Source of the DNA: a candidate division Kazan bacterium GW2011_GWA1_50_15
GTDB lineage: Bacteria; Patescibacteriota; Kazan-3B-28
Length of the DNA stretch: 64,000 nucleotides
Assembly (NCBI GenBank): GCA_001029795.1
Contig: CP011216.1
Coordinates: forward strand, 70,903-134,902
Direction of reading: 5' to 3'
The notes beneath the pieces were generated by a model. It had not been told where the DNA came from and did no database searches. It saw nothing but the letters and a program-made list of their open reading frames with translations. A program made the translations under genes and the position numbers. Below, in pieces: positions 7,451 to 62,260 of the stretch; position 1 is the stretch's first letter; each line of letters opens with the position of its first letter.

Positions 7451-8248
7451 ATGGCAGAGAAAAAGACAACTGCTAAAAAAGCAGTTAAGAAGTCGGAAGC
7501 ATTAGAGAGCAAGCCAGCCAAAGAGCGGAAACCGAAAGTGCAATTAAGTCCGCCAGCCGGCGGAGGGCACGGCAAGAAATATCTGGCCGTTTTGCCGAAG
7601 GTGGACAAAAATAAATTTTATCCGGTAGCGGAGGTGATCCAACTGGTGAAGGAGACCTCACCGGTCAAGTTCGACGCGACCGCTGAATTGCATCTGCAGA
7701 TGGGTTTGGACCCGAAAAAGTCCGAGCAGAACATCCGCGGAACCGTCACACTACCAGCCGGTACCGGCAAACAGCCGAAAATTCTAGTGCTGGCCGAAGC
7801 GACTGACACTAAAAAGGCCGAGGCGGCCGGCGCCGATTTTGTGGGTCTGGAGGATATGATCGAGAAGATCCAAAAGGGCTGGTTGGGATTTGATGTGGTC
7901 ATCGCCACGCCGGCCGTGATGCCCCAGCTAGGCAAGTTGGGCCAGACATTGGGGACCAAAGGACTGATGCCTAACCCTAAATCTGGTACCGTTACCACTG
8001 ATGTGGCTAAGGCAGTGGAGGAATTCAAAAAGGGGAAAGTCGAGTTTCGCTTGGATAAGGATGCCATTATCCATATGGGTTTCGGTAAGGTCTCGTTTGC
8101 GGCTGAAGATCTGCAGGCCAACCTCAACGCAATCCTGGGAGCTGTGCGGGCGGCCAAGCCCAGTAGTGCTAAGGGTACCTACATCAAGAAACTGTCTCTC
8201 TCGAGTACAATGGGGCCGGGAATAAAAATCGATTTGAACTCCGTTTAG
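7451..8248 (+). CDS. rplA: 50S ribosomal protein L1 (with Lys-rich N-terminal extension)
   Basis: L1 core motifs (GTVTLP, KGLMPNPK.GTVT) preceded by a ~35-aa K/A-rich extension. Confidence 0.85.
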   Translation: MAEKKTTAKKAVKKSEALESKPAKERKPKVQLSPPAGGGHGKKYLAVLPKVDKNKFYPVAEVIQLVKETSPVKFDATAELHLQMGLDPKKSEQNIRGTVTLPAGTGKQPKILVLAEATDTKKAEAAGADFVGLEDMIEKIQKGWLGFDVVIATPAVMPQLGKLGQTLGTKGLMPNPKSGTVTTDVAKAVEEFKKGKVEFRLDKDAIIHMGFGKVSFAAEDLQANLNAILGAVRAAKPSSAKGTYIKKLSLSSTMGPGIKIDLNSV

Positions 8249-8252
8249 GTTT

Positions 8253-8432
8253 TGCAACGCCTGCGCCGCGTTGCATCGGCGGCTACTTTCGTCTTGGCGA
8301 AAGTAGCCAAAGCCGTCCGCCAGTCATTCTGGCTATGAATGGAAGCAAAATTAGCTTTCTGGCTTTCGGCGAACTCGTCGTCCGTCAGCTGACGGACTTC
8401 TCAAACAACGCCTTCGCTGCACTAATTTTGCT
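8253..8432 (+). repeat. Copy 1 of oriented ~170-nt structured 3'-UTR repeat (H1 hairpin, conserved H2 hairpin CTACTTTCGTCTTGGCGAAAGTAG, CAAAGCCGT, long closed stem-loop B)
   Basis: H1 8253-8275 (TGCAACGC/GCGTTGCA), H2 8282-8307 (10 bp stem, loop TCTTGG), B closing stem 8344-8354 with 8422-8432. Homologous to copies at 11739, 25202, 38198, 49104. Confidence 0.7.
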
Positions 8433-8494
8433 AATTCAGGACGCCAGAACTCCAATGGCGGTGTCCTCGGGCGGGGATGATATAATGCAGAGTC

Positions 8495-29449: not shown

Positions 29450-29545
29450 TCTCGAGAGGGAAACGGGAGTGCGTTTCCCTCTCGACGTTCGTGGGCAAAG
29501 CCCGTTCCGGCGTAGCCGGAACGGGCTCACTGCTCTCCCTTCCAC
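29450..29545 (+). repeat. Family-2 structured 3'-UTR repeat, copy A (after rpsU stop)
   Basis: Hairpin TCTCGAGAGGGAAAC...GTTTCCCTCTCGA (stem base is the palindrome CTCTCGAGAG), then CGTTCGTGGGCAAAGCCCGTTCCGGCGTAGCCGGAACGGGCTCACTGCTCTC. Near-identical copy at 33008. Confidence 0.65.
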
Positions 29546-33007: not shown

Positions 33008-33103
33008 TCTCGAGAGAGGAACGGGGTGTGTTCCTCTCTCGACGTTCATGGGCAAAGCCCATTCCGGCTACGCCGGAACAAGCTCACTGCTCTCACCTCC
33101 ACC
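33008..33103 (+). repeat. Family-2 structured 3'-UTR repeat, copy B (after ftsZ stop)
   Basis: Hairpin TCGAGAGAGGAAC...GTTCCTCTCTCGA with compensatory changes vs copy A, then GGGCAAAGCCCATTCCGGCTACGCCGGAACAAGCTCACTGCTCTCAC. Confidence 0.65.
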
Positions 33104-33869: not shown

Positions 33870-36722
33870 ATGGGGAACGGTATTAGCAAAGCAGAACAGG
33901 AGTTGGTGACTCGGCGGTTTACCCGGCCGGGTGATGATATATTCAAGATGTTGGATTGGGGTGTACGCCATGTGGAGCTAAAAGACGCCAGCGGTCGGAT
34001 GCTTTTAGATAAAGATGTGGAGGCGCCGCTATCCTGGTCAGATACGGCGGTGACGATCGCTGCCTATAAATATCTGCGCAAGCGAGGGGTGAGTACGCCG
34101 GAGGGGTGTGAGATATCGATCAGACAGCTAGTCCATCGCGTAGCCCATACTATTCGTACGGCAGGCGAGAAGTTGGGCCATCTCACCACTAAAGAGTTGG
34201 CGGATACATTTGAAGATGAGTTGAAATATATTTTGGTTACGCAGCGGGGGGCATTCAACTCTCCGGTGTGGTTCAATGTTGGGCTGTGGCACGAGTACAA
34301 CATTGATGGTTCAACCTTGAATTTTTTCTGGAATCAAGAGACTAATGAAGTTGAGCGAGCTACTAACGCCTACGAACATCCGCAAAGTTCGGCTTGCTTT
34401 ATTCAATCAATTAAAGACGACTTGGGCGATATCTTTGACCTAGTCAAAAAAGAGTCGCAGCTTTTTAAACACGGTAGTGGCACTGGAACTAACTTTTCAT
34501 CTTTGCGGTCAAAGTACGAACTGTTATCTGGTGGCGGAACTAGTAGTGGTGTAATGTCGTTTTTAAATGTGTTTAACGCTGGCGCAGGCGCGACTAAGTC
34601 GGGCGGGACGACCAGACGAGCCGCTAAGATGGTGATCTTAAACGTGGATCACCCTGAGATCATGGATTTTATTCGCTGGAAAGCGCGGGAGGAGGAGAAG
34701 GCCAAGATCCTGATCGAATATGGCGGTCTGCCGTCTGATTTCAACGGCGAGGCGTATCAGACAGTAGGTGGCCAAAACTCGAATAACTCAGTGCGGGTGA
34801 CAGATGAGTTTATGCAGAGCTATCTAGCCGGCGGTCAATGGGACACCCACGAAGTGCTGGGCGGTCGAGTGATCAACACCTACCCGGCCAAGCAGATCAT
34901 GCATGAGATAGCCGAGGCGGCTTGGCGGTGCGCCGACCCCGGGATGCAGTACGACACCACCATCAACCGGTGGCACACATGCAAGGTTAGTGGCCGCATT
35001 AACGGCAGTAATCCCTGCAGTGAGTATATGTTTTTGGACGATACTTCCTGCAACTTGGCCTCCATCAATTTGGTTAAGTTTATGAACGAGGACGGGAGTT
35101 TCAACGTCGAGGAGTTTCATCACGCGGTGGACATCTTTATTTTGGCGCAGGAGATTTTAGTTGATTTTTCGTCTTATCCGGCTAGGGGCATGGCTCAAAA
35201 CTCGCACGAGTTCCGTCCGCTAGGGCTGGGCTACGCCAACTTGGGGGCGTATTTGATGCGGGCCGGACTGCCTTATGACTCGGACAAGGGCCGAGCGCTG
35301 TCAGCGGCGATTACCGCCATGATGACGGGACGAGCCTACGCCCAGTCGGCTCGAATTGCCGAAAAGGTGGGGCCGTTCCCAGGTTACGCTAAAAATCGCG
35401 AGAGTATGTTGGAAGTTATCGGCATGCATCGAGACGCGGCGTATCGCGTTGATGCTAACAACTTGTCGGCGGAATTATTGGCCGTTTCTAAGCAAGATTG
35501 GGATGAGGCACTGGCGCTGGGTGAAAAGCATGGGTTTAGAAATGCGCAAGCCACGGTGTTGGCGCCGACGGGGACGATTGGTCCTTTAATGGACGCGGAT
35601 ACTACTGGCATCGAACCGGACTTTGCGTTGGTTAAATATAAGAAGTTAGCCGGTGGCGGCGGATATTCGATCGTGAATCAGTCAGTTGCACCGGCGCTAG
35701 AACGATTGGGCTATACGGGGAATGAAATTAAAACAATTACGGATTATATTTTAGAGACCGGCAAAATTGAAAACGCACCACATTTGAAAGATGAACATTT
35801 GCCGATTTTCGACTGCGCTAATCGGTGTGGTGACGGCAAAAGATTCATTCGGGCGATGGCGCACTTGGAAATTATGGCGGCGACTCAACCTTTCATTAGC
35901 GGCGCCATTAGCAAAACGGTGAATATGCCGGAGGAGGTGACGGTCGAGGAGGTGGAGGAGGTTTACATTGAGGCCTGGCGGAAGGGTCTGAAGGCGTTGG
36001 CGTTGTATCGGGATAACTGCAAGGCCTCCCAGCCGTTGTCAGCCAAGCGCAAAGAAGTGGAGGCGGCTACGACGCTCATCCCGGCCAAAGCACCAGAAAC
36101 CCATATGCCTAAAACCCGTCAGGGTATCACCCATAGTTTTATTGTGGGCAATCATAAGATCTATCTGACAGCCAATCACTTTGATGACGGTCGGCTGGGC
36201 GAGATATTTTTGCGGTCGGCGCGCGAGGGCTCGATGGTATCGGGTCTGCTCGATACCTTGGCTCGGTTGATGTCGAAGGCCTTACAGCGCGGTGAGTCAG
36301 TAGAATCATTAATTGATTCGCTCATCAATATGCGATTCGAACCGTGGGGCGCGACTGATGATGCAGACATCCCGTTCGCGAAATCCATTCCTGACTACAT
36401 CGCGCGGTGGTTGGGCCGGCAGTTCTTACCGGTTAATCGGCAGGTGATGTTCGGTATCATCGGCGAAGATGTCGCTAAGAGCTTAGAGAGCACGGATGTG
36501 ACAAACGTGGACACTAAAGACCAGACGGTCGAAGCCGCCGCGGATGAAACGCCCGAACCCATCACTTTGCCGCTACAGGAGACATTCAATATCAAGATGG
36601 AGGCTAATGGCGATGTGGCGGAGGGCTCAGCCCCGCCGTGTCCGACCTGCGGCGCTTTGATGGTCCGTAACGGGACATGCTATGCTTGCCGCGAATGCGG
36701 GACGACGACAGGATGCAGCTAG
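33870..36722 (+). CDS. nrdJ: Class II (adenosylcobalamin-dependent) ribonucleotide reductase
   Basis: 950-aa single-chain RNR with conserved PCSEY..CNLASINL active-site region and C-terminal Cys pair (CPTCG...CYACRECG). Confidence 0.75.
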   Translation: MGNGISKAEQELVTRRFTRPGDDIFKMLDWGVRHVELKDASGRMLLDKDVEAPLSWSDTAVTIAAYKYLRKRGVSTPEGCEISIRQLVHRVAHTIRTAGEKLGHLTTKELADTFEDELKYILVTQRGAFNSPVWFNVGLWHEYNIDGSTLNFFWNQETNEVERATNAYEHPQSSACFIQSIKDDLGDIFDLVKKESQLFKHGSGTGTNFSSLRSKYELLSGGGTSSGVMSFLNVFNAGAGATKSGGTTRRAAKMVILNVDHPEIMDFIRWKAREEEKAKILIEYGGLPSDFNGEAYQTVGGQNSNNSVRVTDEFMQSYLAGGQWDTHEVLGGRVINTYPAKQIMHEIAEAAWRCADPGMQYDTTINRWHTCKVSGRINGSNPCSEYMFLDDTSCNLASINLVKFMNEDGSFNVEEFHHAVDIFILAQEILVDFSSYPARGMAQNSHEFRPLGLGYANLGAYLMRAGLPYDSDKGRALSAAITAMMTGRAYAQSARIAEKVGPFPGYAKNRESMLEVIGMHRDAAYRVDANNLSAELLAVSKQDWDEALALGEKHGFRNAQATVLAPTGTIGPLMDADTTGIEPDFALVKYKKLAGGGGYSIVNQSVAPALERLGYTGNEIKTITDYILETGKIENAPHLKDEHLPIFDCANRCGDGKRFIRAMAHLEIMAATQPFISGAISKTVNMPEEVTVEEVEEVYIEAWRKGLKALALYRDNCKASQPLSAKRKEVEAATTLIPAKAPETHMPKTRQGITHSFIVGNHKIYLTANHFDDGRLGEIFLRSAREGSMVSGLLDTLARLMSKALQRGESVESLIDSLINMRFEPWGATDDADIPFAKSIPDYIARWLGRQFLPVNRQVMFGIIGEDVAKSLESTDVTNVDTKDQTVEAAADETPEPITLPLQETFNIKMEANGDVAEGSAPPCPTCGALMVRNGTCYACRECGTTTGCS

Positions 36723-37237: not shown

Positions 37238-37965
37238 ACGAAGTAATTGAATTAGAACCCGAGACCGAAGCATTGCCAGTCATGGAAGTGGCTGGCTTGC
37301 GCGCGGAGATTCACGCCAAGATCAATGAGGCGGTGAGTTTGGGTGTGTTCACGGCGGACGAAGCGAGGCAGTGGGAAGCGGGGTTTGAGGCCTGCACCAA
37401 AATCGAACATATGGAGGAGTTGGTTGATATCATCGATAACTTCATCGATTCTGGTCTCGAGGTAATGGACAAGATAGACACGGTGCTAACTGGTGATGCG
37501 TTTACATCAACCGAACGGATCCAGTGGCGAAGCGAAGCCGAATGGTTAACTTTTAGAGGGATGCAGCTGCTGTTAGACAGATTATTTGAAATTAGTAGTT
37601 CAGCAGAGCAACTGCGCCACCAGTTAGTGAGCTTCTTGGCAGCTAGTCGCTATATCACTCACGAGCGGGCCGAAGAGTTGTGGGGCAAGTTTCATACAGC
37701 TGAAGTAGAGCAGAAACCAAAGGTTTTAGATGACGCTGTACAGTTAGAGTTATCTAGCATGACGGATTACCAGCGATTGAGCCGTGCCACACAAGCCAGG
37801 ATCCGCCAACTGATTAGCGAAGGAAGCTTTAGCAATGCCGAAACCGCTCTGGGGACGGCGCTACCTAAAGCGATCAATCTGTCCGAATACACCGCGTTGC
37901 GCCGCGAGTTGGATGAAGCGCGGATTCAAGAGACGCGCCAGACTATAAGACAAGCGGCAGCGTAG
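37234..37965 (+). CDS. Hypothetical protein
   Basis: ATG 37234 overlaps the upstream stop (ATGA). Helical, no recognised domain. Confidence 0.4.
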   Translation: MNEVIELEPETEALPVMEVAGLRAEIHAKINEAVSLGVFTADEARQWEAGFEACTKIEHMEELVDIIDNFIDSGLEVMDKIDTVLTGDAFTSTERIQWRSEAEWLTFRGMQLLLDRLFEISSSAEQLRHQLVSFLAASRYITHERAEELWGKFHTAEVEQKPKVLDDAVQLELSSMTDYQRLSRATQARIRQLISEGSFSNAETALGTALPKAINLSEYTALRRELDEARIQETRQTIRQAAA

Positions 37966-37981
37966 CCAGTACACTGGGACT

Positions 37982-38206
37982 ATGAGAATAAAAGTAGTGG
38001 TCGTACCCCGGTCCAGCCGCAACGCCATCGAGGAACTGCCGGATGGCAGTTTTAAAGTGTGGGTACGGGCCGTTCCAGAGAAGGGGAAGGCCAATCTGGC
38101 CGTCATTGAACTGTTGGCGCTGAATTTTCGAGTGCCCAAAACCCAAATCGAACTTATTTCTGGGCATCGAGATAAACATAAAATTTTTGAGATTTTTGAA
38201 GCGTGA
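37982..38206 (+). CDS. DUF167 (YggU-like) family protein
   Basis: IKVVVVPRSSRNAIEE...KVWVRAVPEKGKANLAVIELLA matches DUF167. Confidence 0.65.
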   Translation: MRIKVVVVPRSSRNAIEELPDGSFKVWVRAVPEKGKANLAVIELLALNFRVPKTQIELISGHRDKHKIFEIFEA

Positions 38207-38364
38207 AATGACGCTTCACCCATTGCTACTTTTGTCTTGCCAAAAGTAGCCAAAAGCGTGGCCCGCTCACCAATTGCTAACCGAAAGGCAAAATCTGCTT
38301 TCTGGCTTTCGGCAAACTCGTCGCCTTGCTCCTTAGACAGTGCCTGCGCTACGCAGATTTTGCC
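38198..38364 (+). repeat. Copy 4 of ~170-nt structured 3'-UTR repeat (H1 spans the DUF167 stop codon)
   Basis: H1 38198-38217 (GAAGCGT/ACGCTTC with TGA in the loop), H2 38225-38250 (GCTACTTTTG tcttgc CAAAAGTAGC, compensatory T-A vs C-G), CAAAAGCGT, B stem 38287-38298 with 38353-38364. Confidence 0.7.
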
Positions 38365-38533
38365 ATCGGCGGACGCAATTGCCTCGAAGGGCCGGGTAAG
38401 AGCATAGCATGGTTAGCCTGAGGGATGCCGCTGGGAAGATGACCCCACGCCGAAGGGCTACGGGGGAATAATGCTGGTCAGGAGGATAAAATCGGCTATA
38501 ATGAGGGGGATATTTTTTGATATTAGACAAGAT

Positions 38534-39049
38534 ATGCCTAGTCAATATGCGGAACAGCGGGTGGGGGTCTTTGTCGATGTGGCCAATATGTACTATTCGG
38601 CCAAGGCGATGTACCAGCAGAAGGTAAATTTCAAAGCCATCTTGGAAGAGGCGGTCGGAGACCGCAACTTGATCCGAGCGCTGGCTTATGTGGTCCAGGC
38701 CGACATTCCCGAGGAGGCCGGGTTTTTTGAGGCGTTGGAGCGGATCGGATTTGAAGTGAAGGCCAAAGAACTGCAGGTTTTCTACGGTGGCCATAAAAAG
38801 GGTGACTGGGATGTTGGTATCGCCATGGATACTATTAAGCTCTCGACCAAGATAGATGTGGTGGTGTTGGTCTCTGGCGATGGTGATTTTGTGCCGCTGG
38901 TGGAGTATCTGCAGAGCAACGGGCAAAAAGTTGAAGTGATGGCATTTGGTCGGAGCGCTTCGGGGAAGTTGCGGGATGCGGTGGATAAATTTATTGATCT
39001 GGACGCTAATCCTAAGAAGTTTTTGATCACGGAGAGGAAGCGGCGATGA
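38534..39049 (+). CDS. NYN-domain (LabA-like) protein
   Basis: VGVFVDVANMYYS...DVGIAMD...VLVSGDGDFVPLV classic NYN/LabA motifs. Start at ATG 38534. Confidence 0.7.
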   Translation: MPSQYAEQRVGVFVDVANMYYSAKAMYQQKVNFKAILEEAVGDRNLIRALAYVVQADIPEEAGFFEALERIGFEVKAKELQVFYGGHKKGDWDVGIAMDTIKLSTKIDVVVLVSGDGDFVPLVEYLQSNGQKVEVMAFGRSASGKLRDAVDKFIDLDANPKKFLITERKRR

Positions 39050-48631: not shown

Positions 48632-49099
48632 ATGGGAGTTCAAGAATTGTATATCTCGCAGCAAGGTCTAGAAAATCTTAAGCGCGAGCTGGAGGAATTA
48701 AAACAGCAGCGGGTTGAGATCACTGAAAAGATCAAAGACGCCCGTGAGTTTGGCGACTTATCCGAAAACGCTGAGTATCAAGAAGCCAAGACTAAACAAT
48801 CGTTTATTGAAGGGCGCATCGAGGAGATCGAGGCGACCTTGAAAATGGCTAAAGTTATCGATGCAAAAAATAATGCTAACGGCGAGATCAGTGTTGGTTC
48901 GACGGTAGTGGTAGACGGGACTGGCCGCGAAGTAACTTATCAGATCGTGGGTTCTAATGAAGTGAGTCCCGAAGAGGGCAAGATCTCTAACGAATCACCA
49001 TTAGGTGTTGCGTTGATGGGTCACCGAGCCGGGGACAGAGTGATGGTGCCGATGGCGGATGGAGAGGAACGTGAGTATTTGATTGTGAAAGTTAGTTAA
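48632..49099 (+). CDS. greA: Transcription elongation factor GreA
   Basis: Coiled-coil N-terminus with DLSENAEY motif and FKBP-like C-terminus. Confidence 0.85.
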   Translation: MGVQELYISQQGLENLKRELEELKQQRVEITEKIKDAREFGDLSENAEYQEAKTKQSFIEGRIEEIEATLKMAKVIDAKNNANGEISVGSTVVVDGTGREVTYQIVGSNEVSPEEGKISNESPLGVALMGHRAGDRVMVPMADGEEREYLIVKVS

Positions 49100-49103
49100 T
49101 TTT

Positions 49104-49284
49104 TTGCAACGCTCTCAAGCCGCCATTGCATCGGCGTTTTTTTGCCGCATTTTGCTTGCCCAAAACGCGGCACCAAAAGGGCGCCTCACTCACCAATTCA
49201 GTTGCCAAAAACCAAAATCACCCTTTCTGGATTTAACCGCAAACTCGCTCCGCTCAGACATGCTCACCCAGACCGGGTGATTTT
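49104..49284 (+). repeat. Copy 5 of ~170-nt structured 3'-UTR repeat (after greA; H2 outer stem replaced by GCCGC/GCGGC)
   Basis: H1-like 49104-49130 followed by T7. H2 49144-49171 (GCCGCATTTTG cttgcc CAAAACGCGGC). B stem 49214-49223 with 49275-49284; B core nearly identical to copy 2 (CCAGACCGGGTGATTTT). Confidence 0.65.
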
Positions 49285-49447
49285 GCTACTGGCAATCTGA
49301 ATTGCTTCGATGGGTCCCATCGGGAACGGCCCTCTTCCAATGGCGGATGGAGAACGGGGGAAGTGCGGTGTGCTCGGACAGTCCCAAAACTTATCACTTT
49401 TAACTTATCACTGGTGCTCTCTCGAGAACTGATATACTAAGATAGTT

Positions 49448-57271: not shown

Positions 57272-57293
57272 AGAGGCTCTAGATATGAAAAAG

Positions 57294-57316
57294 GCCGCCC
57301 GGAAGGCGGTTTTTTA
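57294..57316 (+). terminator. Rho-independent terminator (GCCGCC cggaa GGCGGT + TTTTT)
   Basis: Hairpin plus T-run after the NUDIX gene. Confidence 0.7.
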
Positions 57317-59407: not shown

Positions 59408-62260
59408 ATGGATGTTTTAAAAACGGTCGGTAGACGGATATACTTTCAGGTGCGTAGATTAAAGAAAGCCATGAGGAACTGGAAAAAGTTTGGCGTGATA
59501 ATTTTTGGCGGGTTAGTACTGGCGATGAACGTCCTGCCAGTTGCTCAAGCAACGGCCGACACACGCCTATTTGAAGTATATGTCGGCATGACGGGTCAGC
59601 ACACCGTGGCAGTCGGAACGCCAGTGGGCTTTACCGCTCAGTCTTATATTGGGGCTGACGATGCTACGACCGATACCAGTTTCAACTGGGAAGTGCGTCA
59701 GGGTACGGCTCTGGTCACCTCGCGGACTGGCGGCACTGCCAGCTACAGTTTTACTCCAACTGCGGCTGGGACGTATGCCATCACTACACGAGGGATTTAT
59801 CAACCAAACCCGATTAAGAGCGCTTGGGCTAAAACCCCAGCCACTTTAACTGTCACTGGCGGCACGACTGACATGCGTCTATTTGAGGTGTATGTTGGCT
59901 ACACCGGCCAAAACTCTATTACGGTCGGGACACCAGCTATTTTCCATGCCGAGTCTCATATTGGGGCTGACGATGCTACGACCGATACCAGTTTCAACTG
60001 GCAGGTGAAGAGGGGAACTGTCTTAGTAGCCTCAACCACTGATTCTGGCAAGGATTATACTTTCACTCCAACTACAGCCGGAACCTATACGATCACGACT
60101 CGCGGTATCTATCGTCCGAATACCACTAAGAGCGCTTGGGCCAAGACCCCGGCGACTCTGACGGCAACTTCAACTACTCCGCCGGAACAGACTCTTGCTA
60201 TTACCATTACCCCCGCCGAGGAGCAGCACACGGTAGTGGGTACGCAATTGCGTGTGCCCTACCAAGCGCGTCCGACCCTGAACGGCCAACCGCTCACGGG
60301 CGGGCTGGTACAGTGGTATGTTAATGGCGCGCCGCGCGGGAACGGTATTAATTTTCCTTACGACGCTTCGATGGTGGCTGGCACTTACGCGGTACGCGCG
60401 GTGTTGAGCTATGACACCCTGCCGGATGCGCAAAGCAACGTGGCTTACGTGTATGTGGCGGAGAAGCCGGAGGCGGACAAGTTTACTACTTTCTATGTTT
60501 ATCCGGACAATAGAACGTTAATTCTTACTCCGGGGGCTGACCAGGAAGATTTCCACTATGTCGCCCAGTTGTCTAATGGTGACAATATTACTCCTGAAGA
60601 GTTGACTTGGCCGGATGTTGGCTTTGGTCAGTTCACGCCTATTTTAAATGGCCGGCACTTTACAGCCACACAACTAGGCAGTGAGACAATTACGATTACG
60701 GCCAAATATCAGGGTGAAACGCTGTTCTATCGGATTCGTATTACAGTGTTACCCGCGGAGACTGGGAACCCGGTCTTGACTCGGGTGACGATCGAACCGC
60801 CGGTTGCTGGTCCGCTGTCAGCGGGTGGAGCGGGGGCTGACTACACCGCGCGGGCTTACGCCGTCACAGCCAACGGCGAGGTGGAGGTTAGCAGCCAGGT
60901 TAATTTCCTGTGGGAGATCGATCCGGTAGCCGTGCGGTATATCGGTACACTCCAAGCTCTGCCGGGGCAGACTCAAGTAGCTCACTTTACTCCCTACGCT
61001 GGAGTGAATGGCAATTTCTATGACGCCATTCACGTCGTAGCCTACTTCGGCAGTCCAGTGCAGATCCGGGACGCTCGGGCCAGCGTATTGATCAATGATG
61101 TGATCATCACGCAAGACCATCTGACTAATCTGACGGTAGCACCGGACCGCTCGGTGATCAGCACTAATGATTCGACGCCGATCCGGGCGCAAGCTTACTC
61201 TAACGGTACGCCGCTGGGCGGCGCAAGTTACAGTTGGCAGATAATCAGCGGAACCGCCACTTTGAGTTCACTGACTGGCCAGGTGGTAACGCTTTATTCG
61301 AACATTTGGACCGGTAATGTTGTCATCCAAGTAACGGCCAATTATAACGCTGATCCATCGATCAGTCGGACGACTACGGTGTTTGTTCAAGGCGCAGTAC
61401 CGCCGATCAATACTATTAATCTGGTGGTTGAGCCGTTGAACCCGACGGTGGTAACGAATAATACTCAGTTATTTACCGCTCGAGTTTACGACAGCAACGG
61501 TGCTAACATTACTAACTTGGTTGATTACGTGAGTTGGTTCAATCAGAACCCGACGGCCGGGACTATCGTTAGCCAGTCTCGCGACAATATGATCTGGCGG
61601 GCAGACAGCGTGCTGGGAACTTTCCCAAGCGCCATCCGGGTGGAGACTCGTTACGGCGGGATGGCTGATACCGAGTACATCACTCCGACAGTGATAATTA
61701 GCGGTCCGACCCCGTTTTACTTCATTAGTCCGTATTTCTACGGTGTGATCGAGGACGGCAGTACGCCGAATGAGGGCGACATCATTATCTACACCATCAC
61801 CCTCACTAATAATCAGCCGAATATGGTGTCGGGTGTGCAGCTGACCACAGACGTGCCAGCCTACACAACGTTCATCTCCGCGACTTCGGCTGTTGACCAT
61901 CCGCGGATCTCTGGCCGGACGATAACCTGGGACGCAGGTACGCTCTATAGTGGCGGGTCACAGACCCTGACCGTGCGGGTGCGCATCAACGAGGGTTTGC
62001 CCAAGAAAGGCATTAGCATCACTGGGTACGCTCATGTGCGAGCCGATCAGCTCCCGCAAGGGTTTAATATCACTTCCAACACGATCGTGGTAGGGAGCGG
62101 AAGCGGTACGCCGGTGACACCAACTGAAGAGCCACTGGCCCCGACCGGAGTTGATTGGCAGACCCTGGTAATGCTGGCACTGGCTTCGATGTTGCTGGCC
62201 GGTGTCGCCATGATAGGACTAGAGCGCCGGGCTGCTAACCGGGCATCAATACAAGAATAA
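59408..62260 (+). CDS. Large cell-surface protein with two tandem ~105-aa repeats, DUF11-like conserved repeat domain and C-terminal LAPTG sortase-type sorting signal
   Basis: Signal peptide ending AQA. Repeats LFEVYVG.TGQ...IGADDATTDTSFNW. Near the C-terminus LAPTG, then a hydrophobic helix, then ERRAANR basic tail. Confidence 0.55.
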   Translation: MDVLKTVGRRIYFQVRRLKKAMRNWKKFGVIIFGGLVLAMNVLPVAQATADTRLFEVYVGMTGQHTVAVGTPVGFTAQSYIGADDATTDTSFNWEVRQGTALVTSRTGGTASYSFTPTAAGTYAITTRGIYQPNPIKSAWAKTPATLTVTGGTTDMRLFEVYVGYTGQNSITVGTPAIFHAESHIGADDATTDTSFNWQVKRGTVLVASTTDSGKDYTFTPTTAGTYTITTRGIYRPNTTKSAWAKTPATLTATSTTPPEQTLAITITPAEEQHTVVGTQLRVPYQARPTLNGQPLTGGLVQWYVNGAPRGNGINFPYDASMVAGTYAVRAVLSYDTLPDAQSNVAYVYVAEKPEADKFTTFYVYPDNRTLILTPGADQEDFHYVAQLSNGDNITPEELTWPDVGFGQFTPILNGRHFTATQLGSETITITAKYQGETLFYRIRITVLPAETGNPVLTRVTIEPPVAGPLSAGGAGADYTARAYAVTANGEVEVSSQVNFLWEIDPVAVRYIGTLQALPGQTQVAHFTPYAGVNGNFYDAIHVVAYFGSPVQIRDARASVLINDVIITQDHLTNLTVAPDRSVISTNDSTPIRAQAYSNGTPLGGASYSWQIISGTATLSSLTGQVVTLYSNIWTGNVVIQVTANYNADPSISRTTTVFVQGAVPPINTINLVVEPLNPTVVTNNTQLFTARVYDSNGANITNLVDYVSWFNQNPTAGTIVSQSRDNMIWRADSVLGTFPSAIRVETRYGGMADTEYITPTVIISGPTPFYFISPYFYGVIEDGSTPNEGDIIIYTITLTNNQPNMVSGVQLTTDVPAYTTFISATSAVDHPRISGRTITWDAGTLYSGGSQTLTVRVRINEGLPKKGISITGYAHVRADQLPQGFNITSNTIVVGSGSGTPVTPTEEPLAPTGVDWQTLVMLALASMLLAGVAMIGLERRAANRASIQE
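59561..60180 (+). repeat. Tandem ~310-bp intragenic duplication, including a 43-nt perfect repeat (TATTGGGGCTGACGATGCTACGACCGATACCAGTTTCAACTGG)
   Basis: Two consecutive ~105-aa protein repeats. Identical 43-mer at 59648 and 59958. Confidence 0.7.

Follow-up and report, generated by a model that had tools for sequence, protein, structure and literature searches.

The 64-kb stretch of DNA analyzed in this study (the window) contains five copies of a structured intergenic repeat. Copy 4, the subject of this report, spans approximately 38193-38394 of the plus strand, between a DUF167 gene and an NYN-domain gene, and carries a subfamily tail that extends to approximately 38466. Our results indicate that copy 4 is probably a non-autonomous, mosaic, horizontally spreading intergenic repeat, comparable to bacterial interspersed mosaic elements (BIMEs), BOX elements, and transposable elements of the miniature inverted-repeat type (MITEs), that occurs in Patescibacteria near Kazan. 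The family has apparently not been described so far, and the conservation of one of its hairpins across phyla is apparently unusual. Each copy is approximately 210-280 nt long and is composed of four parts: a T-rich leader, a variable head containing the hairpin H1 and the short helix Ha, the hairpin H2, and a long imperfect rod formed by the helices P2 to P4. H2 is constrained in sequence in its upper stem, its TCTTGG-like loop, and its CCAAAnCCG 3' flank, and the rod drifts in sequence with its pairing kept. More than 60 copies were found overall in loci of the candidate phyla radiation (CPR). The placement of copies showed that the family inserts into the short spacer behind a gene's 3' end, nearly always in the same orientation as that gene, whose stop codon it touches or replaces.

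The five copies make up approximately 2% of the window, and all lie on the plus strand (Table 1). The H2 pattern occurred four times in the window versus 0.00 expected from 100 shuffles, confirming that copy 4 is a genuine repeat copy, as the initial annotation had proposed. That annotation numbered copies 1 to 4; copy 5 was detected by a profile search, and its H2 is divergent (TGCCGCATTTTG cttgcc CAAAACGCGGCA, then CCAAAAGG), with the lower stem replaced (TGCCGC/GCGGCA). Each of the five copies touches a co-oriented gene at its stop codon, the genes being rplA, rplL, secF, the DUF167 gene, and the gene at 48632-49099. The rplA-dut spacer was also filled in another Patescibacteria genome (L003), there behind a canonical terminator, and copy 3 faces a PD-(D/E)XK nuclease gene in convergent orientation (25402-26178, minus strand). 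For CPR copies in other genomes, a co-oriented stop codon was located 20-41 nt 5' of H2, that is, in H1 or the T-leader, in 14 of 23 cases. T-runs precede H1 in most CPR copies, in many of them directly after the stop codon, and stop codon and element often meet without a gap (TAG-GTTTTT, TGA-TTTTATTTTT, and TAA-TTTTC, the hyphen marking the junction). Elsewhere the stop codon precedes the T-run, lies at the base of H1, or is found well upstream behind a canonical terminator. Exceptions to this placement are L003, in which the copy follows a canonical hairpin with a U-tract, L012, in which it follows the 3' end of 16S rRNA, and L095, L097, and L050, whose copies lie upstream of divergent genes. 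The use of open reading frames (ORFs) as proxies for orientation bias was abandoned; CPR loci were noisy owing to spurious antisense ORFs, and tandem contexts in proteobacteria were unbiased. As a separate observation, the junction TAG-GTTTTT was common to four non-orthologous copies (copy 1, L088, L034, and L037), the stop codon being TAG in 4/4. The stop codon at these junctions may belong to the element or to its target, and a TA-type target is possible.

Comparison with other genomes pointed to exchange of the element between lineages. The closest full-length relatives of the isoleucyl-tRNA synthetase (IleRS) encoded in the window were approximately 70% identical and those of Kazan genomes 58-62% identical, which puts the window within an uncultured lineage of Patescibacteria close to Kazan. 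Copy 3, located between secF and the PD-(D/E)XK gene, shared 90.5% identity over 199 nt with a Kazan copy (L008) located at a non-orthologous site between the signal peptidase I gene and rplU. Similarly, the body of copy 5 was 93.7% identical over 126 nt to that of a Kazan copy at a different locus (L055). Because the elements were 90-94% identical and the host proteins approximately 60% identical, recent transfer and recombination of modules appear to have taken place. The copies in the window were 68-88% identical to one another. The head and H2 of copy 1 were 100% identical over 67 nt to those of L153, with unrelated bodies, whereas L128, L148, and L149 had near-identical bodies and different heads, and the head AAGGGTCTACGCCACCCTT was paired with at least three body types. 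The assignment of copies 1 and 4 to a second subfamily held in part: the two share the B core, but the P3 architecture of copy 4 matches that of copies 2 and 5, implying that the elements are mosaic. The modules were thus recombined among copies in the manner of BIME and BOX elements, and the family displays the general features of a mobile repeat, namely multiple copies, presence or absence at orthologous sites, and near-identical copies at non-orthologous sites. Contigs were also found to break inside the element (L112 and loci of Pseudomonas and Acutalibacteraceae).

The locus of copy 4 could be compared with empty sites. The order of the genes for ribonucleotide reductase, DUF167, NYN, and IleRS is conserved across the loci of relatives. 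The DUF167-NYN spacer is empty and lacks a hairpin in L113 (78 nt) and L114 (77 nt), in which DUF167 ends in YEIG and FEIG, respectively. In L148/L112 the spacer is filled, with the element directly after GAGATTGGATAA and DUF167 again ending in FEIG. The filled spacer of the window measures approximately 330 nt, and its DUF167 ends in FEIFEA. The DUF167 orthologues at empty sites end in GAGATTGGATAA or GAGATAGGGTAG. In the window, the DUF167 ORF (37982-38206, 74 aa) matched Pfam DUF167 with E=1e-19, and since the domain stops at residue 71/74, the gene appears to run into the element, reading three codons in and using the first in-frame stop codon inside it. The initial annotation had located this stop codon within H1 and taken translation to terminate inside the hairpin. 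The position was correct, the TGA at 38204-38206 consisting of the final 5'-arm base and the first two loop bases; termination there as a designed feature was not supported. Given the empty spacer of approximately 78 nt in related genomes, the location of the stop codon within the H1 loop is best regarded as a by-product of the insertion, the native stop having presumably been replaced. The filled and empty sites were from different species, and at the 3' junction divergence was too great for a target-site duplication to be read. Downstream of the element, the segment TATAATgGGAGGGATATTTTTTAGATATTAG..ATG is kept in both filled and empty orthologous DUF167-NYN loci, and the -10 box found 3' of each copy is part of the downstream gene. 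The suspicion that the minus-strand ORF at 38333-38926 is spurious was borne out: it runs antisense to a well-supported gene with an NYN domain (E=5e-36) and matches no Pfam family.

The element was larger than initially described. The annotated end at 38364 was too short, with the helix partners of 38260-38298 lying at 38353-38393 and the tail reaching approximately 38466, and the two hairpins and B domain listed there are only part of an element in which Ha and the rod had been overlooked. H1 was read in the sequence as stated (GAAGCGT at 38198-38204, loop gaaatg, ACGCTTC at 38211-38217) and lengthens to 8 bp through T38197 and A38218 (TGAAGCGT at 38197-38204, ACGCTTCA at 38211-38218). Almost all of the 31-38 distinct heads had a hairpin of 6-10 bp here, with diverse stem sequences (GAGCGC, AAGCGC, AAGGGT, GAACGC, GACCGT, and AAGCAC, among others). 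Ha joins the 3' half of the H1 loop to bases immediately 5' of the foot of H2. It was selected by RNAalifold, with pair types such as CG9/GC8/AU3, and 16 different strand sequences are in use. Of 31 distinct heads, 28 had a 4-nt complement in cis (versus 18% in trans) and 16 a 5-nt complement (versus 4.6%), all of which argues that Ha is real. H1 and Ha overlap topologically with a linker of only 2-3 nt, so that the two form either alternative folds or a strained pseudoknot.

H2 of copy 1 reads GCTACTTTCG tcttgg CGAAAGTAGC, from which copy 4 differs by one two-sided pair and one loop base. The compensatory change described between these copies was thus confirmed, one pair having changed from C-G to T-A on both sides. 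It was not an alignment artefact; the head and H2 aligned without gaps across 21 Patescibacteria copies. H1 and H2 are both conserved as hairpins, and their compensatory changes are genuine. Among these 21 copies, pair 2 of H2 was UA10/CG7/AU2, pair 9 CG14/UA6/GC1, and pair 10 GC11/CG7. RNAalifold recovered three helices from the same gapless alignment, namely H2, the long-range P4, and the short Ha. The flank CAAAAGCG is in part a repeat of the first bases of the H2 3' arm, and the upper stem, loop, and 3' flank are kept across phyla. In copies not chosen by the search pattern, the lower stem was free (TTAC, CTAC, CCCGC, GCCAC, GGCAC), and the upper stem, loop, and AAAnCG flank were retained. 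A UUGG/CCAA pseudoknot between loop and flank was rejected as sterically implausible and not conserved in H2 variants.

The apical region of the rod (38299-38352) holds the B core reported previously (38298-38323). This core, CTTTCTGGCTTTCGGCAAACTCGTCG, has one mismatch to copy 1, as had been noticed, and was found nowhere else in the window. Statistics for the copy-4 subfamily were obtained from an alignment of 10 copies (A3), with 500 shuffles and slid registers as controls. Standard pairs filled 95.1% of paired cells versus 77.8% in shuffles (0/500 reached the observed value) and 26-47% in slid registers. Both sides had changed in 29 of 50 pairs versus 18.2 in shuffles and 2-8 in slid registers, and the covariation score was 0.482 versus 0.164 and 0.03-0.08, respectively. 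Tests in cis versus trans backed Ha, P2, and P4, and the single-sequence minimum free energy (MFE) fold of copy 4 had z = -4.3. Compensatory changes therefore exceeded the controls, as for a structured RNA in general, and a folded single DNA strand fits equally. The tail, including GATGACCCCACGCCGAAGGGCTACGGGGG, is similar to the motif at the 3' terminus of the other subfamily (AGAACGACC...GAAGGGCC); it is present after the near-identical copies L128 and L112 (two loci of another genome) and absent at L149. Separately, solo 3' fragments without a head (..ACGCAATTTGCTCAAAGGGG and ..GACCCCACGCCGAAGGGCT) were observed at L130 (7777 and 8473) and at 38438-38466 of the window, which suggests decay or partial insertion.

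Table 1: Parts of copy 4, the adjoining promoter, and the other copies of the repeat in the window.
Feature	Position	Strand	Basis or context
T-rich leader, 5' end of element	38193..38197	+	inside last DUF167 codons (ATT TTT GAA GCG TGA)
H1 hairpin, 8 bp, TGAAGCGT / gaaatg / ACGCTTCA	38197..38218	+	sequence and MFE fold
Helix Ha, AATG (38207-38210, H1 loop) with CATT (38221-38224, just 5' of H2 foot)	38207..38224	+	RNAalifold
H2, conserved family hairpin, GCTACTTTTG / tcttgc / CAAAAGTAGC	38225..38250	+	sequence; 99% of cells paired
Single-stranded flank CAAAAGCG, family consensus CCAAA[AG][CG]CG	38251..38258	+	(nearly) invariant columns; in all phyla
Rod domain, nested long-range helices P2-P3-P3b-P4	38260..38393	+	MFE fold z = -4.3; 10-copy consensus fold
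P2	38260-38264/38389-38393	+	consensus fold
P3	38271-38277/38375-38381	+	consensus fold
P3b	38281-38284/38366-38369	+	consensus fold
P4	38287-38298/38353-38364	+	consensus fold
Subfamily 3' tail, including GATGACCCCACGCCGAAGGGCTACGGGGG (38438-38466)	38394..38466	+	same tail after near-identical copies elsewhere
Native NYN promoter and leader, outside element	38475..38533	+	TGGTCA-16-TATAAT, -10 box 38497-38502; promoter scan
Copy 1	8249..8470	+	directly after rplA stop TAG (8246-8248), before dut
Copy 2	11735..11951	+	rplL stop TAA (11738-11740) forms H1 base
Copy 3	25196..25400	+	secF stop TGA (25201-25203) forms H1 base
Copy 5	49100..49345	+	directly after stop TAA (49097-49099) of gene 48632-49099; nhmmer E = 9e-29

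Searches for a known identity gave negative results. With Rfam 15 at the gathering threshold, the window yielded only 4 tRNAs and 14 loci from other phyla only a 5S rRNA; in permissive mode, the best hit for copy 4 was narK, at 12.6 bits versus a threshold of 43.2. An intrinsic (Rho-independent) terminator was rejected, as no terminator-like site was detected on either strand in 37900-38700 and a terminator scan found none between DUF167 and the NYN promoter. None of the helices is followed by a U-tract; H2 is followed by CCAAAAGCG, and T-runs sit 5' of H1 instead. Canonical bidirectional terminator-like hairpins (AAAAACCGCCC-tttg-GGCGGTTTTTT) were observed at 9552-9577 and 57290-57315, so the genome uses ordinary intrinsic terminators elsewhere. 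The element does not end in terminal inverted repeats like a MITE; its inverted repeats are internal (P2-P4), and its 5' 70 nt (leader, H1, and H2) have no partner at the 3' end. No insertion sequence (IS) with shared ends was present in approximately 150 loci. When 3,864 ORFs from 111 loci were clustered all against all, only translated repeats and housekeeping paralogues emerged, the recurrent neighbor clusters being response regulators, UvrA, nonribosomal peptide synthetases, and resistance-nodulation-division pumps. The motif had no match among 2.9 million viral contigs, and a plasmid search with the Xanthomonas and Pseudomonas versions was likewise negative. A literature search by sequence string returned no paper with the sequence; a keyword search returned papers on repetitive extragenic palindromic (REP) sequences, on REPINs, and on MITEs, as well as on ISPpu9/ssr9, the last a precedent concerning another element. 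A pseudoknot for stop codon read-through or frameshifting was also rejected, because the frames after the stop codon differ between copies (YFRLGES in copies 2 and 3, TFVLAKV in copies 1 and 4) and there is therefore no common read-through product.

If copy 4 is a mobile repeat, the object under selection would be the folded single strand, as DNA during mobilization, as RNA, or as both, and H2 would serve as the handle for a trans-acting protein encoded away from the copies. Once inserted, the element would be transcribed as the 3' untranslated region (3' UTR) of the upstream gene, where the rod of approximately 45 bp and the hairpins might act as a 3' stabilizer, a processing site, or an insulator before the next promoter.

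Several points weigh against this explanation. No transposase, REP-associated tyrosine transposase (RAYT), or recurrent protein was found near the motif in approximately 150 loci. With neither terminal inverted repeats nor a target-site duplication definable and no linked enzyme, mobility is deduced from the distribution of the copies and not from a mechanism. The filled and empty sites belong to different species, and deletion in the "empty" lineages is conceivable. Extreme purifying selection could in principle give 90-94% identity without transfer, and two-sided changes in an inverted repeat can also come from DNA-level template switching between its arms. The folding energy does not favor the plus strand, the complement being on average 4.8 kcal/mol more stable. 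As a guide to the strand, the energy was uninformative or pointed the opposite way; A/C-rich loops and recurrent G-T pairs hint that the plus strand is the sense strand, against an energy that slightly favors the complement.

A less probable explanation is that copy 4 is a functional cis-acting 3'-UTR RNA that was selected by the host and spread because it was useful, as a U-tract-independent terminator or insulator, an RNase III/RNase E processing site, or an mRNA stabilizer, with H2 bound by a conserved RNA-binding protein. This would account for the tight co-orientation and abutment to stop codons, the extensive covariation, and the location after the highly expressed rplA, rplL, 16S rRNA, and secF genes, as well as for the filling of the room up to the next promoter, where a canonical terminator is absent. 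Moreover, the unpaired conserved segments are A/C-rich on the plus strand, which is usual for the sense strand of a structured RNA, and recurrent G-T "pairs" in the H3 hairpin of the other subfamily (GGCC/GGTC) can pair only on that strand. In contrast, it does not explain copies that lie behind a canonical hairpin-plus-U-tract terminator (L003 and L012) or upstream of divergent genes, nor the close relatives without the element at the same site. It is further weakened by the lack of a U-tract after any helix, by the unbiased orientation of the proteobacterial copies in tandem contexts (11 vs 12), and by a folding energy without strand preference.

It appears unlikely that copy 4 is the relic of a hairpin-dependent single-stranded DNA transposon, similar to the REP/REPIN-RAYT system or to an IS200/IS605 palindrome-associated transposable element (PATE), with H2 as the subterminal hairpin for an HUH (Y1) transposase encoded elsewhere and Ha as the guide pairing. 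H2 is indeed a perfect conserved hairpin with a constrained loop and flank, a free lower stem, and GTAG/GTAA within the stem, and the 4-6 bp pairing just 5' of its foot with a site approximately 13-16 nt upstream has a geometry that recalls the guide and cleavage-site pairing of IS608. The absence of terminal inverted repeats and the single orientation on one replichore (five plus-strand copies, with monotonic GC skew) also agree with such a relic. Nevertheless, none of approximately 150 loci contained a TnpA or RAYT gene, each CPR element has one H2-like hairpin without a right-end counterpart, and the left junctions (TAG-G, TGA-T, TAA-T, or within codons) have no conserved tetranucleotide. 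IS608-like guide/target pairing was rejected for Ha, whose 5' strand is missing from empty sites and is thus not a target-borne cleavage site. REP sequences are normally lineage-specific and 20-40 nt long; membership of the REP/REPIN-RAYT class was rejected on the unit length of 210-280 nt, the one H2 per unit, and the one orientation, and that of the IS200/IS605 PATE class on the single conserved hairpin and the lack of TnpA in the loci examined. Finally, a small minus-strand protein, past or present (...IAAKALFE..EFAESQK...TALVTFAKTKVT, followed by a stop), of which the repeats would be gene fragments, is scarcely credible and effectively refuted: the similar conceptual peptides in copies 1, 3, and 4 and L097 follow trivially, in any frame, from the likeness of the DNA, whereas each copy lacks a start codon and is interrupted by in-frame stops or frame shifts, the subfamily indels are not multiples of three, the changes in H2 are radical as amino acids (A to P, T to R) yet keep the pairing, and no Pfam match was obtained. 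A protein-coding gene of any kind was rejected in the same way, since six-frame translations of every copy gave stops or frame shifts and neither the plus ORF, the minus ORF, nor the conceptual peptide matched Pfam.

The exact H2 pattern matched more than 111 loci, in the Pseudomonas putida group, Xanthomonadales, Trinickia, a Moraxellaceae metagenome-assembled genome (MAG), Mucilaginibacter and other Bacteroidota, and Acutalibacteraceae. A GC-rich hairpin always abuts the 5' side of the motif in these loci. Outside CPR, H2 is embedded in lineage-specific repeats (the Pseudomonas unit is approximately 330 nt), often at contig ends, and its core is near-invariant across the repeats of Pseudomonas, Xanthomonadales, Bacteroidota, and Clostridia. 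In the Clostridia version, as seen at an Acutalibacteraceae MAG locus (L070, 4780-5460), two H2-like hairpins stand in tandem, TTTACTTTGGCGC-tcttcgg-TGCCAAAGTAAA followed by TTACTTTTG-tcttgg-CAAAAGTAA; two whole units are 542 nt apart there. H2 (CTTTG/CAAAG upper stem, TCTTGG loop, CCAAAnCCG flank) could conceivably be the handle of unrecognized structured mobile elements or RNAs that cross phyla and are served by one conserved trans-acting protein, with the self-complementary H1/Ha head as a programmable part that determines the site or mode of action of the element, for instance by steering insertion to gene 3' ends or stop codons; we regard this as a speculation with rather long odds.

Genomes of Patescibacteria/CPR are extremely streamlined and are usually called poor in mobile DNA. 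The sharing of the element at 90-94% identity, compared with approximately 60% for housekeeping proteins, would represent active horizontal traffic of a non-coding element in CPR. The element also matters for annotation, as it alters gene 3' ends by adding new C-terminal residues and stop codons, fills the sole spacer between a gene and the next promoter, breaks assemblies, and gives rise to spurious ORFs, among them "genes" of 118 and 56 aa and strings resembling peptides in annotations of Pseudomonas and Bacteroidota. Spurious calls over repeats were observed in L115 (959-1315, 118 aa), as long ORFs in L033 and L017, and as "ALVTLAKTKVTRRKGGK" (Pseudomonas) and "YFCLDTKVTKKSS" (Bacteroidota). 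The cross-phylum hairpin is a bait for the protein that recognizes it and could reveal a new mobilization or RNA-processing system.

Other repeats were noted alongside this family. A second, unrelated small hairpin repeat (gtcattcccgacctgatcgggaatcc, tcattcctgcggaggcaggaatcc, gtcattccggatttagtccggaatc) often lies just 5' of the element (L021, L095, L055, and L117, from Kazan and Patescibacteria). The window also contains a different pair of 80-nt repeats (29466-29545 and 33023-33102, 84% identical) with the GC hairpin AGCCCGTTCCGGC-gta-GCCGGAACGGGCT, the second repeat preceding the gene for ribonucleotide reductase (33870-36722). At 59640-60169, two units stand in tandem with a 312-nt period (identity 95% over 56 nt and 73% over 114 nt) and are probably a repeated domain inside a coding region.

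Among known systems, BIME/REP sequences of enterobacteria and pseudomonads, which are served by RAYT, are likewise intergenic hairpin repeats at gene 3' ends or between convergent genes, and by analogy the present family would share their mosaic modules, their non-autonomous nature, their transcription into 3' UTRs, and GTAG-like bases at the hairpin. However, REP sequences are 20-40 nt long and lineage-specific, come in pairs with both orientations represented, and flank the RAYT gene, whereas the present element measures 210-280 nt, has one orientation, a head-H2-rod organization, and an H2 core that crosses phyla, and no nearby RAYT was found. The BOX elements of Streptococcus pneumoniae (boxA-boxB-boxC) and the enterobacterial repetitive intergenic consensus (ERIC) sequences, also called intergenic repeat units (IRUs), are modular or long imperfect-palindrome repeats of 100-300 nt. 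They may be compared with our element in being non-coding, of no known transposase, folded into stable RNA, and located in transcribed intergenic DNA, but they are unrelated in sequence and each is restricted to one lineage, in contrast to the 90-94% identity between distant CPR lineages and the hairpin common to other phyla. MITEPpu9/ssr9 is a structured-RNA MITE moved in trans by the transposase of the IS110-family ISPpu9 (PMC12288879); ssr9 is confined to three P. putida strains and is not the H2 motif. Structured-RNA MITEs of this kind and the Correia/NEMIS elements of Neisseria offer a plausible analogy as small, non-autonomous elements with a transposase in trans, structured RNA, and specific intergenic sites, although our element is without A/B boxes, terminal inverted repeats, or an identified parent IS. 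IS200/IS605 PATEs resemble it in having a subterminal hairpin rather than terminal inverted repeats, short pairing at the hairpin foot, and a strand-specific orientation; our element differs in its single hairpin, where PATEs have two, and in lacking a conserved target tetranucleotide; TnpA/TnpB was not found, and the partner of Ha lies within the element and not in the target. Integron attC sites are likewise folded single-strand sites, with structure kept over sequence, and are co-oriented at or overlapping the upstream stop codon. Unlike attC sites, our element follows dispersed core genes (rplA, rplL, secF) and not cassettes, and has no R''/L''-L'/R' boxes, intI, or array.

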